DNA of 64,000 nt from Parcubacteria group bacterium (GTDB taxonomy: Bacteria > Patescibacteriota > Minisyncoccia > Moranbacterales > UBA2206). Positions 2,622 to 55,860 of this stretch are shown here, in pieces (position 1 is the stretch's first letter; the number at the start of each line of letters is the position of its first letter). The translations under genes were made by a program, and so were the position numbers. Below the pieces are notes generated by a model, which searched no databases, was not told the DNA's origin, and was given only the letters and a program-made list of their open reading frames with translations. The DNA is taken from the NCBI GenBank assembly GCA_041661275.1, contig JBAZUU010000003.1:25586-89585 (forward strand). The letters run 5' to 3'.

Positions 2622-4472
2622 ATGAATAAGATTAATTTCTTTGCTAAAACTAATTTCCGCAATCAGGAGAGGACGTTCGGGATAAAAAGGGAGGATCGTA
2701 CCCGCCACATGTATGTCATTGGAAAAACGGGTATGGGGAAAACGAATCTTCTGGAGAATATGGCCATTCAGGATATCCGTGATGGCGAGGGTGTTTGCGT
2801 TGTCGATCCGCACGGAGAATTTGCCGAAAAAATGTTGCGAGCCGTTCCGCCCGAGCGTATAAATGACGTTGTCTATTTCAATCCGGCGGACAAAGAATTT
2901 CCGGTGGCTTTTAATATTCTGGAAGCGGTTGATGAGGACAAAAAAAATCTGGTGGCTTCGGGTATGATGGGTGTTTTCAAAAAAATATGGCCGGACGTTT
3001 GGAGTCCGCGGATGGAATATATTCTCAATAATACAATTCTCGCTCTTCTTGATTATCCTGGCTCAACCATGCTTGGCGTCAACCGGATGATGTTTGACAA
3101 GGATTATCGGAAACGCGTTTATCCTAAAATAAAGGATCCGGTGGTCAAATCATTCTGGATCAACGAATTTGACAAATGGGAAGATAAATTCCGAAAAGAA
3201 GCAGTGGCGGCCATCCAAAATAAAGTCGGCCAATTTTTGTCTTCTGTCGTCATCCGCCATATTGTCGGCCAGCCGAAATCGACGATCGATATGCGAGAGA
3301 TTATGGATAACAAAAAAATTCTTATCGTCAATCTTTCGAAGGGCAGGATAGGAGAAGACGCTATGAGACTTTTGGGCGGTATGGTTGTAACAAAGATCCA
3401 GCTGGCGGCCATGGGAAGAGTGGATATCAATTCTGAAGATCGAAAAGACTTTTATCTCTATGTCGATGAATTCCAGAACTTTGCCACGGAGTCTTTTGCC
3501 AATATTTTATCCGAAGCCAGAAAATATCGCTTGAATCTGATCCTGGCTCACCAATATATCAATCAGCTGGTCTTTGATAATAATTCCGTGGTGCGTGACG
3601 CTGTTTTTGGCAACGTCGGAACGATGGTTACTTTTCGGGTTGGGGCGGATGACGCGGAATTTCTGGAAAAAGAATTCGAGCCGGTTTTTATGATGAATGA
3701 TCTGGTCAACTTGGCAAAATACAATGTTTATCTTAAGCTAATGATTGACGGGATAACCGGCGATGCTTTTTCCGCAACCACTTTACCACCGGCCGATCTG
3801 TCGGAGACTACCGGAAATGAAGAAAAAGCTATTAAGGTTTCCCGAGAAAGATATGGAAAAAGCCGAGCGGAAGTGGAAGAAAAGATCGCCCGCTGGAGCG
3901 GAATGATGGATATGGAAGAATATGATAATCTGGCCGCTAAAAGAAATAATAATGCCAGTCCGGCCGTCCCTATTGCTCCGCCCAGATTTAATCCGCCTGC
4001 AAATCAAGCAGTAACACAAGTCAGAAGAGAAGAAGTCAGAGAAAGAGTAGCTTATACGCCAAGACCAGCTAGTGTTTCTGTTTCGCCTCCAAAACCAGAT
4101 ATAAAACAAAATATTGAGGAAAAACCAATGTTTTCGGCGGTGTGCGACACGTGCGAGGAAAAAATCAGTGTTCCTTTCAAGCCCGATCCATCACGTCCAA
4201 CTTTTTGCAAAGAGTGCCTGAAGGATTATCAAAGGGCTAAAGCCCGGGCGCAAGCCAAGCCGGATAATTATCAAAAGCCTGATAATCGTTACGAAAAAAG
4301 AGAACCGGAAAAGAAAGAATATCAACCGAACGCTTTTGTCCCCAGGGAAAGACCGATGAGTCTCAATCAAATTTCGCATATGGCTCCCAAAAAATTCAAA
4401 CGCGCGCGGCCACAGGTAAATTTGAGCGAAGTGCGGGAATTAATTGATAAAACTAAAAAAAATGATAACTGA
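2622..4472 (+). CDS. P-loop NTPase of the VirD4/TraD/TrwB-like (DUF87/HerA-FtsK-like) family with C-terminal CxxC..CxxC zinc ribbon
   Basis: Walker A YVIGKTGMGKTNLLENM followed by VVDPHGEF (similar to DPKGE of coupling proteins). Walker B-like LYVDEFQNF. C-terminal CDTCEEK...CKEC zinc ribbon. Confidence 0.5.
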   Translation: MNKINFFAKTNFRNQERTFGIKREDRTRHMYVIGKTGMGKTNLLENMAIQDIRDGEGVCVVDPHGEFAEKMLRAVPPERINDVVYFNPADKEFPVAFNILEAVDEDKKNLVASGMMGVFKKIWPDVWSPRMEYILNNTILALLDYPGSTMLGVNRMMFDKDYRKRVYPKIKDPVVKSFWINEFDKWEDKFRKEAVAAIQNKVGQFLSSVVIRHIVGQPKSTIDMREIMDNKKILIVNLSKGRIGEDAMRLLGGMVVTKIQLAAMGRVDINSEDRKDFYLYVDEFQNFATESFANILSEARKYRLNLILAHQYINQLVFDNNSVVRDAVFGNVGTMVTFRVGADDAEFLEKEFEPVFMMNDLVNLAKYNVYLKLMIDGITGDAFSATTLPPADLSETTGNEEKAIKVSRERYGKSRAEVEEKIARWSGMMDMEEYDNLAAKRNNNASPAVPIAPPRFNPPANQAVTQVRREEVRERVAYTPRPASVSVSPPKPDIKQNIEEKPMFSAVCDTCEEKISVPFKPDPSRPTFCKECLKDYQRAKARAQAKPDNYQKPDNRYEKREPEKKEYQPNAFVPRERPMSLNQISHMAPKKFKRARPQVNLSEVRELIDKTKKNDN

Positions 4473-49434: not shown

Positions 49435-49469
49435 TTCAATTTTATTAATAGGAGTGCTATAATACAACT

Positions 49470-49587
49470 ATGCAGGAATTTTGGCAGAAAAAGATAAAAA
49501 TACATATAATATTTGAGTCGCTGGAGAGTTATAACGAAAGCGTATATTTTTAGATTTTGAAAGCCGTCCATTTGGACGGTTTTTTTG
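49470..49587 (+). ncRNA. Candidate small RNA (copy 1 of repeated element) with own promoter and intrinsic terminator
   Basis: Promoter ttcaat-N17-tataat (49437-49463). Terminator ccgtcc-attt-ggacgg plus ttttttt (49564-49587). About 85% identical to 55435-55551. Confidence 0.45.
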
Positions 49588-49669
49588 TAAAAAAACAGAC
49601 AATTTAGAAGTTGACAAATAAACCAAACAGGTATATAATAACCAGTTATCATAACGTCTTTAAATAACT

Positions 49670-51583: not shown

Positions 51584-51668
51584 ATTTGCTCAATTTTAAG
51601 GGTCGAAGTATTGCGTGATTATTGCGCGATTCTTGCGCGATTCATGAAAATCGTGTATAATAGAGATA

Positions 51669-52723
51669 TGCTAAAACCACAATATAAACTCACCAACAAA
51701 ATACTTAAAAACCTGACGGATATCGCTGAAGCAAAGGGGATTATTGAAAAAGCTAAACTTCTCCCCAGGCACGAACTAAAGCTCAAGCGTCAGGCGATGA
51801 TAAGGATGTCTCATAGTTCCACGGCTATTGAAGGCAATATTTTGGACATCCGCCAGGTTGAGGCTCTCTATGCTAATAAGAAAATAGACGCACCGGATCG
51901 GGATATTTATGAAGTAAAAAACTATTTGGAAGCTCTGAAATATATAGAGAAGTTTGTCAAAAGTGGAAAGCCGATTTCAGTAAAAGTGTTACTCAAAATT
52001 CATTCGCTGGTAACCAACAAAACTTTGCCAGTCGAGCAGTCGGGTCATTTTCGCCAAAGTCCGGTCTATGTCGTCAAAAGAAGATTGGGATTTCCGGACG
52101 AAATAGTTTATGCCGGGCCTGTCGCGGCGAATGTTCCTTATCTTTGTAACGATTTGATTGAGTGGATAAACAAAAGCGAAAAAGAAGAAACAAATCCGGT
52201 TATTGTGGCCGGAGTAACTCATTTGGAAATTGCGGCCATCCATCCGTTCAGCGATGGTAACGGAAGAACGGCCAGAGCTTTGGCTACTTTGATATTATAT
52301 AAGCGAGGCTATGATTTTAGACATTTATTCGCTTTGGAAGATTATTATAATAAAGATCTGCCAAGCTATTACAAGGCCATAAATGTCGGTAAAAATTATG
52401 AAGAGAGAAAGACAGAAATTACCTATTGGCTGGAATATTTTGTGGAGGGTTTTAGAGACGAAATTATGAGCGTCAAAAATCAAGTTACAACACTAGCTCT
52501 TAAAAAGGTAGATAAAAATATTGGAAGTCAGGTGTATCTAACGCCAAAGCAACAGCAGATATTGGATTTTGTTGATCAGCTGGGAAGAATAAAGGTTAGT
52601 GATGTAGTGGATATTTTGAAATGTCCTCAAAGAACGGCTCAGCTGGAACTACAGAAACTCAAAAAGCTGGGGATTATCAAACAAGTCGGTAAAGGTAAGG
52701 CGACTTATTACAAGTTGAAGTAA
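51669..52723 (+). CDS. Fic family protein with C-terminal winged-helix domain
   Basis: HPFSDGNGRTAR Fic motif. Start ATG 51669 (MLKPQYK) is preceded by tataat and a triplicated ttgcgcgatt repeat. Confidence 0.75.
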
Positions 52724-52791
52724 AAATATGCGAGAAGTTGCTTATTGCAGGGCTGCTATTTTTCAGTAGAATTAATATAAAAGTGCGAGAT

Positions 52792-53542
52792 AAAAGGGGT
52801 CAAGTACCTTTTCTATCAAACAGTAATATGAGCAATATGATATACTCAACACATGGCTAGAATTCCAAGAAATCCAATAGGTGATGTTGCCTATCATGTG
52901 CTTAATCGTGCCAATGGGCGAGAGCAGATTTTTAATAAAGAAAAAGATTACGAAGCTTTCATAAAAATCATTCAAGAAGCCAAGGAAAAATATCCAGTGG
53001 ATATTTTTACCCTTTGCCTCATGTCCAATCATTGGCATTTTTCTTTGAGTGCCAAAAAAGGAGAAAATATTTCCAATTTCATGCGCTGGGTAACTCACAC
53101 CCATACTCAACGTTATCATTCCCATTACAAAACTATCGGTTACGGCCATCTCTATCAGGGTAGATATAAATCTTTCCCTATTGAAAAAGATAACCATTTT
53201 CTCCAAGTTTGCCGCTATATTGAAAGAAATCCGATCAGGGCTGGATTAGTAAGAAAAGCTCAGAATTGGAAATGGTCAAGTCTTTGGATAAGAAAAAATG
53301 GAACCAAAGAACAAAAAGCATTATTATCAGACTGGCCGGTAGAAATGCCGATTGGATATCTGGAATGGGTTAATGTTTTAGATAAAAACGAAGAAGACAA
53401 GCTAAACAAAATACGATATGCTCTCAAAAGAGGGTGCCCCTATGGCGAAGATAGCTGGGTTAAGAAAACAGCAAAAAAACTAAACTTAATTTCCACATTA
53501 ATTCCCAGAGGCAGACCGAAAAAAGGTACCTGACCCCTTTTT
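52792..53542. mobile_element. REP-RAYT-REP unit: IS200-like HUH Y1 transposase gene flanked by inverted REP-like hairpins
   Basis: Left aaaaggggtcaagtaccttttc (52792-52813). Right gaaaaaaggtacctgaccccttttt (53518-53542) is its imperfect reverse complement. Each is itself a small hairpin. Confidence 0.55.
52853..53533 (+). CDS. REP-associated tyrosine transposase (RAYT) / IS200-like Y1 HUH transposase
   Basis: HuH motif LMSNHWH and catalytic Tyr region YQGRYKS. 226 aa with a C-terminal extension typical of RAYTs. Confidence 0.65.
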   Translation: MARIPRNPIGDVAYHVLNRANGREQIFNKEKDYEAFIKIIQEAKEKYPVDIFTLCLMSNHWHFSLSAKKGENISNFMRWVTHTHTQRYHSHYKTIGYGHLYQGRYKSFPIEKDNHFLQVCRYIERNPIRAGLVRKAQNWKWSSLWIRKNGTKEQKALLSDWPVEMPIGYLEWVNVLDKNEEDKLNKIRYALKRGCPYGEDSWVKKTAKKLNLISTLIPRGRPKKGT

Positions 53543-53554
53543 CTCTCTCCCCAA

Positions 53555-53720
53555 GAAAGCTATCATAGAGGCGTTGAAAAAAAGCGGTATTAAAAAAGGA
53601 GAAAAACTGTATGATTTAGGTGCGGGAAATGGAAGGATTTTAGTGATTGCTGAAAAAGAATTTGGCTTAAAATCAATTCTGTCCAAATTTGTTAGGATTG
53701 ATACTAGTGTATGTTTAATT
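53555..53720 (+). pseudogene. Class I SAM-dependent methyltransferase N-terminal fragment (motif I) with no start and truncated after about 55 codons
   Basis: Translation KAIIEALKKSGIKKGEKLYDLGAGNGRILVIAEKEFGLKS contains the DLGAGNG SAM-binding motif. Confidence 0.35.
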
Positions 53721-53858
53721 TAATTTTGCTGATTAATAAGTTACAAATAGGCCTGTTTATTAAACTTTATTTATTTTTTCGACCATCGAAATTAAATTAA
53801 TAACGCACTAGTCCTATAATTATTGTTAAATTCAATAAATATTATTACAATCATCAAT

Positions 53859-55181
53859 ATGCCAAATGAAATATACGCAGGTCACATCTATCCAAACGAA
53901 CTTCTTCGTCCTCCTAAAGATAATATTCCTTCATTAGAACACGTATATTTTGTTGTAGGTACAGTTATGAGTGACATTGGTAAAGGATGGCTTTCAGGTT
54001 CGATAGCTAGTACTTTAGATAATCCCCTGATAATAAAAATAGATCCGATGCTAAATCAAAGTTTTCCTGAAAACGTAGGTATCCCTATGGACAATACACA
54101 CGTAACAGATGACTTTAAAACATATCAGCGTTTAGGATTAGAGACAAAAGTTGATAACAATATCGTAATGGGACAGATATGGAGAGAATATCTAAGTCAT
54201 TCCCAAATTCCTATGCAGATAACCGAAGGATCAATTAAAAAACAGACTTATGCGGATGTGGCGGATTATTTTTCAGATAAACTACTCAATATGATTAAAT
54301 CATCTCATGCTAAAAATGTTGTAATTGAAATTGGAGGTACGCCAGTAGATTCAGAACAAGATGTACTTCCATCCACTTTCCGTTTAATGGGGATCAAGAC
54401 GAATGTTGTACCTGAGCTCATTCTTCTCTCATATTTTGAAACGAGAGAGGATAATGCTAACGATGGGAAAAAAGGTTTGAAAACTCAAATTATTCGACAA
54501 GGAATACGCGATGCAACCACAAAATATGCAGGATTACCATTAAAATCTGTATTTGTACGAAGAAGGCGCGTTTCCGAGTCAATTGTGTCTGTATCATTGC
54601 AGGATGAATTATTGAGGGTGGCATATGAGACACAAATATCTCCACAAAAATTAACACTTCTTGAAAATTATCAAGATGTTACAGAATTAATGAAATATAT
54701 ATCGGAATCTGGTATTTTTAAAGAAATTGATAAACCACTGATGGTTAGTGCATGTATCTTGGGAATACCATGTAGGTTTGATGGAGCATCAAAACCAGTG
54801 GGAGATCGAAAAATGAATGTTATTTTATCAAATGGATCTGCTTTAATTTTATGTCCTGAAATATTAGCAGGTTTACCCACACCAAGAGGACCGTATAATA
54901 TAACTTCAGGTAGTGGAGAAGATGTTTTAAATGGAATTGCAAAAGTAGTTGATAACGATGGAAATGACGTGACGGATCTATTTATAAAAGGTGCAGTAGC
55001 AACATTAAAAGCACTTATGAATAGGGGTATTAAAAAAGCATATTTACGTGAAGGTAGTCCATCATGTGGAATAAATAGAATTACTACAAAATTGGATGGA
55101 AAAGTATCTGCTATGGGTGTAACGACTGCTTTACTACAACGCTGGGGTATAGAGTGCATCTCATCTGATGCAGTTGTTTAG
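53859..55181 (+). CDS. Fusion protein: CTP synthase N-terminal (amidoligase)-like domain plus DUF523 (TudS-like, Cys-rich) domain
   Basis: N-terminus VYFVVGTVMSDIGKGWLSGSI, IIKIDPMLN and VVIEIGGTPVDSEQD parallel CTP synthase motifs. C-terminus ACILGIPCRFDGASKP...ILCPEILAGLPTPRGP matches DUF523. AT-rich codon usage. Confidence 0.45.
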   Translation: MPNEIYAGHIYPNELLRPPKDNIPSLEHVYFVVGTVMSDIGKGWLSGSIASTLDNPLIIKIDPMLNQSFPENVGIPMDNTHVTDDFKTYQRLGLETKVDNNIVMGQIWREYLSHSQIPMQITEGSIKKQTYADVADYFSDKLLNMIKSSHAKNVVIEIGGTPVDSEQDVLPSTFRLMGIKTNVVPELILLSYFETREDNANDGKKGLKTQIIRQGIRDATTKYAGLPLKSVFVRRRRVSESIVSVSLQDELLRVAYETQISPQKLTLLENYQDVTELMKYISESGIFKEIDKPLMVSACILGIPCRFDGASKPVGDRKMNVILSNGSALILCPEILAGLPTPRGPYNITSGSGEDVLNGIAKVVDNDGNDVTDLFIKGAVATLKALMNRGIKKAYLREGSPSCGINRITTKLDGKVSAMGVTTALLQRWGIECISSDAVV

Positions 55182-55434
55182 GACATATATGGATAATTCA
55201 GTAATACTTTGTAGCGCATGTTTGGGATGGAAAACATGGTGTTTTTGCAGTAGCTACTAGCGAGAAAATAACTAGCTCGGTCACTTTCTCGTTAGAACCT
55301 ACCGTATGGCAAGAGCCAAGCTATCCAGAGCCAGGAGAAATCGTTCTTCTTGGTAATCTTCGTAAGAAGCGGGCTTGATCAAAAATGAGCCACATGTGTT
55401 TGACTAACAGAGCTTGTTTTTCGTATAATACACT

Positions 55435-55551
55435 TATGCAGGAAATCAGGAATAAGAAGATAAAAATACATACAATATTCGAGTCGCTCGAGAATCAAAA
55501 CGAAAGCGTATATTTTTAGTTTTTGAAGGCCGTCCATTGGGGCGGTTTTTT
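55435..55551 (+). ncRNA. Candidate small RNA (copy 2 of repeated element) with promoter TTGACT-N18-TATAAT and intrinsic terminator
   Basis: ttgact 55399-55404 and tataat 55423-55428. Terminator gccgtcc-attg-gggcgg plus ttttttt. Its G-U replaces the A-U of copy 1, keeping the stem. Confidence 0.45.
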
Positions 55552-55573
55552 TGTCGGAAAAGATTGAGGATTG

Positions 55574-55860
55574 ACCCCGCACTAACTTTTGTTTGTTATG
55601 CATTACGTTTATATTATACAGAATGAATTAGCCGAATTATATTATGGTTGTACCGGTAATCTTAAGAAAAGATTTTTTGAGCATAACAACAATAAATCCT
55701 TTTCTACCAAAAGTCATAAGTGGAAACTGATCTATTACGAAGCATATACGGCCGAGGAAGACGCATGGAATAGAGAAAAACAGCTAAAGCAATATGGCCA
55801 AGCCCTGGGTCAGTTGAAAAGGAGACTTAAAAAATCTTTGAACAAAAGTTAGTGCGGGGT
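55574..55860. repeat. Perfect 20-bp inverted repeats (accccgcactaacttttgtt / aacaaaagttagtgcggggt) bracketing the GIY-YIG gene
   Basis: 55574-55593 and 55841-55860 are exact reverse complements. The right copy contains the stop codon. Confidence 0.6.
55598..55852 (+). CDS. GIY-YIG nuclease family protein (UPF0213/YhbQ-like)
   Basis: YVYIIQNE...YYGCTGNLKKRFFEHN is the GIY-YIG motif with conserved R and E. Confidence 0.65.
   Translation: MHYVYIIQNELAELYYGCTGNLKKRFFEHNNNKSFSTKSHKWKLIYYEAYTAEEDAWNREKQLKQYGQALGQLKRRLKKSLNKS

Follow-up and report, generated by a model that had tools for sequence, protein, structure and literature searches.

What kind of element is the 750-bp unit, consisting of a gene for a 226-aa HUH/Y1 protein between two inverted repeats, that lies beside a methyltransferase gene fragment in the genome of a Parcubacteria group bacterium? 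The unit is situated in a 64-kb stretch of contig JBAZUU010000003.1 (the whole 64,000 nt are referred to here as the window). An earlier interpretation made from the letters alone (the sequence-only reading) had taken it for a REP-RAYT-REP unit, that is, a gene for a REP-associated tyrosine transposase (RAYT) between repetitive extragenic palindromic (REP) hairpins, inserted next to a truncated methyltransferase gene fragment consistent with gene disruption, and had seen a fit between the dispersal of REPs by RAYTs and the many short palindromes of the window. Our analysis indicates that the cassette is likely to be a complete TIRtron, in which cognate 21-nt terminal inverted repeats (TIRs) enclose the gene for a TIR-associated tyrosine transposase (TIRYT), which is read from an internal promoter. 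TIRtrons are RAYT-like genes with terminal inverted repeats in place of GTAG REPs (Di Nocera, De Gregorio & Rocco 2013, BMC Genomics 14:522). The class was named in 2013, was classified in 2017-2018 and is widespread, and the cassette in the window is a further example of it, in Patescibacteria; the literature searched contained nothing relevant on RAYTs in Patescibacteria. The locus is better called a TIRtron than a REP-RAYT-REP unit. Its features are collected in Table 1.

Table 1. Features of the cassette and its surroundings in the window, with related loci that carry derivatives of the repeat
Feature	Position or loci	Strand	Remarks
Complete cassette	52792-53541		750 bp; open reading frame (ORF) between two 21-nt inverted repeats
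Left terminal inverted repeat, AAAAGGGGTCAAGTACCTTTT	52792-52812	n/a	Outer limit of the conserved cassette
Extended -10 promoter element, TGATATACT	52838-52846	+	Ends 6 nt upstream of the ATG; direct sequence reading
TIRYT gene, intact	52853-53533	+	226-aa HUH/Y1 predicted single-stranded DNA (ssDNA) nuclease/transposase; by profile, fold and homology
HUH codons H60-W61-H62	53030-53038	+	Invariant in 34 homologues; align with H59-M60-H61 of TnpA_REP
Codons Y122-I-E-R-N-P	53216-53233	+	Y122 is the predicted catalytic Tyr; Y---NP class 2 signature
Right terminal inverted repeat, AAAAGGTACCTGACCCCTTTT	53521-53541	n/a	Homology with relatives stops here
Methyltransferase relic, aKMT-like class I S-adenosylmethionine-dependent type, motif I	53547-53675	+	About 43-45 codons; outside the cassette
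Gene-less inverted doublets of the 19-mer	L090, L092, L094, L097, L099, L100, L108, L110, L124, L133, L163, L180, L188, L203, others		Start-to-start distance 27-200 nt
Half-repeat tandem duplications, at either cassette end	L018, L024, L035, L039, L053, L056, L062, L066, L068, L071, L072, L075, L076, L079, L083, others		Up to 5 copies in L035

The encoded protein is of the RAYT type

The ORF carries LMSNHWH at residues 56-62 and YQGRYKS at residues 101-107 of its product and matches Pfam Y1_Tnp (72 bits, E 6e-20), which bears out the 226-aa HUH Y1 protein of the sequence-only reading. The Pfam family is entitled 'Transposase IS200 like', and the TnpA proteins of ISDra2 and IS608 are detectable structural relatives, as might be expected if the cassette were an ordinary insertion sequence (IS) of the IS200/IS605 family. 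However, the earlier label 'IS200-like' has to be dropped: the protein reached 22.2 bits with the NCBIfam model transpos_IS200 (cut-off 55) compared with 72.3 bits with REP_Tyr_transpos (cut-off 80), and its tyrosine motif is Y---NP, which marks class 2 of the TnpA_Y1 family, whereas IS200-type enzymes have Y---Q (Quentin 2018). In addition, the protein has 226 aa and a C-terminal extension rather than about 150 aa, the cassette ends in inverted repeats instead of like-oriented subterminal hairpins, and the window has a single copy of the gene, which is not accompanied by a tnpB. An ordinary IS200/IS605 element is effectively refuted by the motif and the scores, and we give this explanation almost no credence.

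In a profile of 34 homologues, Escherichia coli TnpA_REP (4ER8) was the top solved relative, with ISDra2 TnpA behind it. A fold search with the AlphaFold model of the window protein (predicted local distance difference test score, pLDDT, 89.7) also gave 4ER8 as the best match (E 8e-9, target-normalised template modelling score, TM, 0.71). Taking these results together with the NCBIfam scores and the Y---NP motif, a RAYT-type rather than an IS200-type Y1 enzyme is supported. In the alignment to TnpA_REP, H60/H62 fall on H59/H61, Y122 on the catalytic Y115 and N126 on the metal ligand N119, which places the predicted catalytic tyrosine at Y122 in CRYIERNP and not in YQGRYKS, the stretch that had earlier been proposed as the Tyr region. 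Among the 34 homologues, Y122, E124, R125 and N126 are invariant, and NHWH (residues 59-62) and YIERNP (residues 122-127) as a whole are invariant or near-invariant. All three residues of WSS (W141, S142 and S143) are conserved, as is the C-terminal extension of about 100 residues, which is helical in the AlphaFold model; Pfam gave no match to a helix-turn-helix (HTH) or DnaA_C domain in this tail even at E <=1.

Three published sequences were compared pairwise with the window protein. The identity was 48% over 224 aa (full length, E 4e-81) to TIRYT RB2408 of Rhodopirellula baltica, 42% over the full length to TIRYT dau_2153 of Desulforudis audaxviator, and only 21% to E. coli TnpA_REP. Most TIRYTs have been equated with subclass 2.1 (Quentin et al. 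2018), which corresponds to RAYT Group 1 (Bertels et al. 2017), and the window protein probably belongs to the same group, an assignment made by similarity and motifs only.

Terminal repeats and promoter of the cassette

The flanking inverted repeats, which the sequence-only reading had placed at 52792-52813 and 53518-53542, are real, and those positions were right to within 1-3 bases. The left and right arms are complementary at 20 of 21 positions. In the window, only the two arms match the repeat at <=3 mismatches (0.01 matches expected by chance), and searching at up to 6 mismatches, or for half-sites, brought up nothing credible. As ssDNA, a single arm folds at -3.2 to -4.5 kcal/mol (z -1.8 to -2.6), its 6-bp AAAAGG/CCTTTT stem closing a loop of 9 nt. 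The robust signal is the complementarity of one arm to the other, the fold-back of each arm on itself being weak.

Many TIRtron repeats carry GGGGWSAS, the commonest TIR type, and a TIRtron repeat may overlap the 3' end of its gene (Di Nocera 2013). Both traits are seen here. The reverse complement of the right arm includes GGGGTCAG, an exact match to GGGGWSAS, and the left arm includes GGGGTCAA, a 7/8 match. Furthermore, the right arm encodes the final four codons, K-K-G-T, together with the TGA stop (53531-53533).

A RAYT-like protein between inverted repeats would also be seen in a canonical REPtron, in which the RAYT spreads GTAG-type REP hairpins through this genome and the flanking hairpins come from a dispersed family. 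This explanation gains from the finding, described below, that a 19-mer of the repeat occurs both solo and in doublets on other metagenomic contigs, among the matches listed. However, a canonical REP is defined by the tetranucleotide GT[AG]G 5' at the foot of an imperfect hairpin, and neither GTAG nor GTGG was present in the sequence surrounding the foot of either arm's hairpin, which is itself weak. No extra copy of the repeat exists within the 64 kb, the protein is 21% identical to E. coli TnpA_REP compared with 48% to a listed TIRYT, its NCBIfam score lies under the equivalog cut-off (72.3 vs 80), and the other palindromes of the window are unrelated. A repeat that forms a moderately abundant genomic family is found in some TIRtrons but not all and is optional for the class (Di Nocera 2013). 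Of the REP-RAYT-REP unit the RAYT-like protein and the cognate inverted repeats stand, but the repeats are not REPs as these are defined, and we regard a canonical REPtron as quite unlikely. The sequence-only reading had looked to two things, how the protein clusters and whether the hairpins recur, and the outcome is divided: the protein does not cluster with IS200 enzymes, but no other copies of the repeats exist in the available sequence.

A consensus promoter scan did not call a promoter upstream of the window gene, where the -35 region is poor. The promoter proposed here is an extended -10 element read by eye, taken together with the family statistics given below. On these grounds the mRNA of the window gene is probably leaderless and transcribed from an internal promoter. 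There is no second copy of the transposase gene in the window.

Anatomy of the family

The protein family comprises at least 2520 clusters at 90% identity, and its members are nearly all 223-226 aa in length. Scanning one genome per species gave 80 loci, from Patescibacteria, Planctomycetota, Nitrospirota, NC10, Elusimicrobiota and others. A separate scan, of viral contigs, found no relatives. An inverted pair, mostly perfect, flanks the gene in 67 related loci, which share the layout of left repeat, promoter, ORF and right repeat. In these loci the left arm typically ends 30-42 nt upstream of the ATG, while the start of the right arm varies from -12 to about +30 nt relative to the end of the coding match. 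Their consensus arm is AAAGGKGWCRGGwnYCTTTT, which the left arm of the window fits. Because strict GGGGWSAS matches only 12 of the 67 left arms, the broader consensus GGKGWCRG was derived. In Patescibacteria the stop codon comes from the right arm, and the last residues of the protein (KKGT, KKGS or KKGD) vary with the repeat sequence of the locus. The repeat types are not confined to single phyla.

The interval between the left arm and the ATG is conserved as well. TTGAC is present there in 41 of 78 loci, compared with 2 in control regions, and a TANNNT hexamer ends 4-9 nt before the start codon in 57 of the 78, compared with 5 in the control; its spacing has a sharp mode, being exactly 6 nt in 38 of the 78 loci. 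This conservation indicates that the genes of the family have an internal promoter and, probably, a leaderless mRNA. As a separate observation, an apparent tRNA 3' end (GGTTCAAATCCCCCTTGCTCCA) lies no more than about 15 nt before the left repeat of a cassette from candidate division NPL-UPA2 (L010, around 2900-3000).

Mobility of the class

Evidence of mobility came from the Planctomycetia metagenome-assembled genome CAWFIG01, in which three cassette copies (L034, L047 and L064) are 98.8-99.2% identical and have unrelated flanks; a fourth homologous copy (L031) stands at 90%. Identity among the three copies is confined to the stretch from repeat to repeat, with no evident direct duplication of the target. 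Three copies that are about 99% identical in unrelated flanks show directly that gene and repeats duplicate or move as a whole.

The repeat is also found apart from the gene. The exact 19-mer AAAGGGGTCARGTACCTTT occurs at no fewer than 119 metagenome loci of the Joint Genome Institute (JGI). Among the matches listed (<=1 mismatch), 57 copies flank a homologous gene, 51 form inverted doublets (<=250 nt apart) that lack a gene, and 48 are solo, more than 900 nt from any gene; a further 36 lie at contig ends and are undecidable. A doublet spacer is common to several contigs (L110, L188 and L203), and some doublets (L092 and L180) retain the promoter and the ATG of the cassette. Those that retain them are internal-deletion derivatives, and as a group the doublets look like derivatives of the type of miniature inverted-repeat transposable elements (MITEs) or REPINs. 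Given the copies of about 99% identity in different flanks, the gene-less doublets and the solo copies, the TIRtron class is mobile.

A further peculiarity was noted at the cassette ends. The locus-specific outer flank is tandemly duplicated together with the outer half of the repeat at 18 of the 67 loci from genomes and at several from metagenomes, and the junction of the duplication always lies directly after GGKGWC(R). These duplications may be either footprints of cleavage or products of slippage. That the tandem copies are iteron-like binding sites was also considered and was rejected as the main explanation, each unit including locus-specific flank.

Selection on the repeats and residence of the window copy

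The cassette is the only one of its kind in the window; it is probably a long-resident and selectively maintained copy, and bears no sign of recent activity. When it was compared with its relatives L085, L003 and L083 (78-85% aa identity), dS was 1.0-2.7, so that synonymous sites are saturated, and dN/dS was 0.05-0.16. Despite the saturated dS, the 19-21-nt repeat is identical across the four cassettes. Homology with L003, L083, L085 and L086 starts at the left repeat, and among close relatives it stops exactly at the outer ends of the repeats on both sides, with different neighbour genes in each. An apparent right-flank motif common to the window and L083, CCCCAARAAAG, was not upheld by a four-way alignment.

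Across the family, repeat similarity correlates with protein similarity (Mantel r 0.35, reached by 0 of 999 permutations), and pairs with >=70% protein identity have 95% repeat identity. Within the arm, the positions of the AAAGG/CCTTT stem are paired in 79%, compared with 42-67% in shifted controls, and some A-T/T-A/G-C exchanges occur at the outer stem pairs; these data lend modest support to a conserved intra-arm fold-back. Overall, the comparisons show that the repeats are under selection at the DNA level and co-diverge with the protein.

In a related genome, a cassette of 78% aa identity occupies the same variable region downstream of GARS, between other genes, and GARS itself is 85% identical. 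This arrangement is compatible with long residence and local rearrangement. A divergence so like that of a housekeeping neighbour, in a single-copy gene under strong purifying selection whose left repeat abuts the promoter, would also suit a domesticated and immobile host gene, that is, an ssDNA-processing nuclease for which the repeats are operator or substrate sites kept by selection; indeed, RAYT groups have been argued to behave like housekeeping genes (Bertels 2017). However, the same work places Group 1 among the most IS-like RAYT groups (Bertels 2017), and a host gene fixed in place does not agree with immediate neighbours that differ in all close relatives, with homology that ends exactly at the repeats or with near-identical copies in different flanks of one genome. 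Moreover, the gene-less doublets bear the same repeat, and the repeat types cross phyla. We therefore consider domestication unlikely, and keep to a TIRtron that has long resided at this locus.

Proposed mechanism

By analogy with the biochemistry of TnpA_REP and IS608, the TIRYT enzyme of such a TIRtron would recognise the repeat on ssDNA. Each arm can form a short AAAGG/CCTTT-stemmed hairpin; at the left end the top strand bears the repeat sequence, and at the right end the bottom strand bears it. Cutting would proceed via Y122, with the metal held by H60/H62/N126 and a 5'-phosphotyrosine intermediate, and would be followed by rejoining. The cassette, or repeat doublets, could then move and leave the target unduplicated, a behaviour that has been proposed for RAYT/REPIN systems. 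Because the junctions of the half-repeat duplications fall there, the break may lie directly 3' of the GGKGWC(R) core. Since the left repeat abuts the promoter, binding of the protein to this repeat could autoregulate the gene.

A wider proposal, which we put forward as doubtful, is that TIRYT cassettes are distinct autonomous ssDNA transposons, very abundant in bacteria of the candidate phyla radiation, that cut inside their terminal repeat 3' of GGKGWC(R). If this is true, they differ from IS608 and TnpA_REP, which cut outside the hairpin. The tandem duplications of flank and outer half-repeat, seen at about one-quarter of the loci, would have been left by strand transfer that was abortive or iterated, the gene-less doublets would be MITE/REPIN-like dependants, and the window copy, whose right repeat contains the stop codon, would represent the system in a minimal natural form.

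Several points weigh against the TIRtron explanation and its mechanism. The cassette is the sole copy within the 64 kb, and in public assemblies an identical protein is present in a single genomic context, so that there is no direct sign that this copy moves. The closeness of the cassette's divergence (78% aa) to that of GARS (85%) agrees with domestication or with a long vertical residence. The hairpin of each arm is weak, and the NCBIfam RAYT score (72.3) is under its cut-off (80). The literature searched contained no biochemical characterisation of any TIRYT, and the ssDNA mechanism is borrowed from TnpA_REP and IS608. The cleavage position comes from the duplication junctions alone, and microhomology-mediated slippage could give the same junctions.

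TIRYT/Group 1 is the largest RAYT group, and the family now offers testable handles: near-universal repeats that co-diverge with the protein, boundaries at the repeats, MITE-like doublets, and duplication junctions that hint at where the cut is made. The window copy is a compact, intact and easily synthesised example (750 bp, 226 codons). The gain for the annotation of this genome is modest, amounting to one resident mobile-element-type cassette beside a decayed methyltransferase gene, and the family-level regularities are more useful than the locus itself.

The methyltransferase relic and neighbouring genes

The start-less methyltransferase fragment downstream of the cassette, recognised earlier by its motif I, is genuine. 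Its frame is open from 53535 to 53723, lacks an ATG and contains DLGAGNGRILV; it matches the NCBIfam protein-lysine N-methyltransferase model (E 4e-5) at model positions 5-36 of 142, and YDLGAGNGRILV aligns to residues 12-56 of the 161-aa aKMT 5FA8 (E 1.2e-4). The similarity ends at about 53668-53675 and is followed by AT-rich non-coding sequence. About two-thirds of the domain is missing, the approximately 105 C-terminal residues being gone on the side away from the cassette. The JGI annotation has a 49-aa ORF here, named UbiE-like, and this self ORF was the only match to the fragment among 5.8 billion proteins; no intact orthologue of the methyltransferase was found.

The second part of the earlier claim, that the fragment is consistent with gene disruption, fared less well. 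The window holds no other methyltransferase pieces, and no N-terminus of the enzyme was found upstream of the left repeat; a frame at 52738-52860 (...KRGQVPFLS...) that was tried as a candidate is spurious, being encoded by the repeat itself. As the missing C-terminal residues lie away from the cassette, at least one other deletion must have occurred, and the cassette alone cannot explain the truncation. An 'empty site' was sought through homologues of the downstream gene and none was found, the best homologues being only 54% identical; one of them does have a methyltransferase directly upstream, but of an unrelated family (E 0.11). The empty-site search neither supports nor refutes insertional disruption. 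Thus, the presence of a gene relic adjoining the cassette is confirmed, and its disruption by the cassette is unproven.

The genes on either side are of some interest in themselves. The downstream gene (53859-55181) encodes a CTP-synthase-N-like domain fused to a 2-thiouracil desulfurase/DUF523 domain, a rare fusion whose best homologues reach 54%. Directly before the cassette, the upstream gene (51611-52723) encodes a 370-aa Fic-domain protein with a C-terminal winged-helix/HTH. The Fic protein of the related genome L083 is only 35% identical, so that the region downstream of GARS differs from one relative to another.

Other repeats in the window

The sequence-only reading had linked the transposase to the short palindromic families of the window. 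The other inverted and direct repeats of the window are unrelated in sequence to the cassette repeat, and the other palindromes are therefore not progeny of the transposase gene. Two of these repeats deserve mention. An 87-aa ORF (55589-55852) that matches Pfam GIY-YIG (E 1e-12) is enclosed by a perfect inverted repeat of 20 nt, ACCCCGCACTAACTTTTGTT (55574-55593 and 55841-55860), and forms with it a second tiny cassette of a nuclease gene in inverted repeats, 2 kb from the TIRtron. A 138-nt direct repeat with 85% identity occurs at 49458-49595 and 55424-55561. Each copy has a TATAAT box, followed after 6 nt by an ATG and a 27-codon ORF (MQEFWQKKIKIHIIFESLESYNESVYF and MQEIRNKKIKIHTIFESLENQNESVYF), and finally a GC hairpin that has a T-run. 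Rfam gave no match at the gathering threshold, and the repeat looks like a two-copy gene for a leaderless micro-protein or a small RNA.

Comparison with known systems

The IS200/IS605 elements, as represented by the TnpA proteins of IS608 and ISDra2, have in common with the window cassette the HUH/Y1 catalytic core and, presumably, an ssDNA chemistry without target duplication. They differ in having Y---Q, like-oriented subterminal hairpins and usually multiple copies, whereas the window cassette has Y---NP, inverted ends and a single copy in the 64 kb, and its protein has an extra C-terminal domain and scores far under the family cut-off.

The REPtron of E. coli, TnpA_REP (4ER8) with REP/BIME, is nearer. 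TnpA_REP is the closest solved relative, with the HUH motif, the catalytic Tyr and the Asn ligand all in alignment; its gene lies between inverted copies of its DNA target, as the window gene lies between cognate repeats, and the gene-less inverted doublets on other metagenome contigs are analogous to REPINs. However, the window lacks the GTAG guide tetranucleotide and a high-copy repeat family, and its hairpin is much weaker. The tails also differ, that of TnpA_REP being autoinhibitory and 25 residues long and that of the window protein helical and 100 residues long.

With subclass 2.1/Group 1, the window protein shares Y---NP, the N-H-u-H motif, the 'SS' of the proximal tail (WSS), a long C-terminal extension, a length of about 230 aa, low copy number and a patchy distribution over many phyla. 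It has NHWH and YIERNP, whereas the motifs tabulated for the subclass are NHVH or NH[YF]H and YIELNP or Y[IV]HLNP; in addition, the published subclass has a distal HTH-like domain, while Pfam finds no HTH in the tail of the window protein. No REP-like sequences were found for subclass 2.1 (Quentin et al. 2018), whereas flanking repeats are near-universal in the relatives examined here.

The fit is closest with the published TIRtrons and TIRYTs. The window protein shares NHWH, THTQRY, GHLYQGRYKSFP, Y(I/V)ERN, W(S/G)S and the PRGRP(K/R)K tail with the published TIRYT alignment, although its host belongs to the Parcubacteria/Patescibacteria, a phylum absent from the 2013 and 2018 surveys. Although the cassette has no detectable repeat family within 64 kb and is very compact, at 750 bp with its stop codon within the right repeat, its gene, as in the published TIRtrons, lies within GGGGWSAS-bearing terminal inverted repeats that are unrelated to GTAG REPs.

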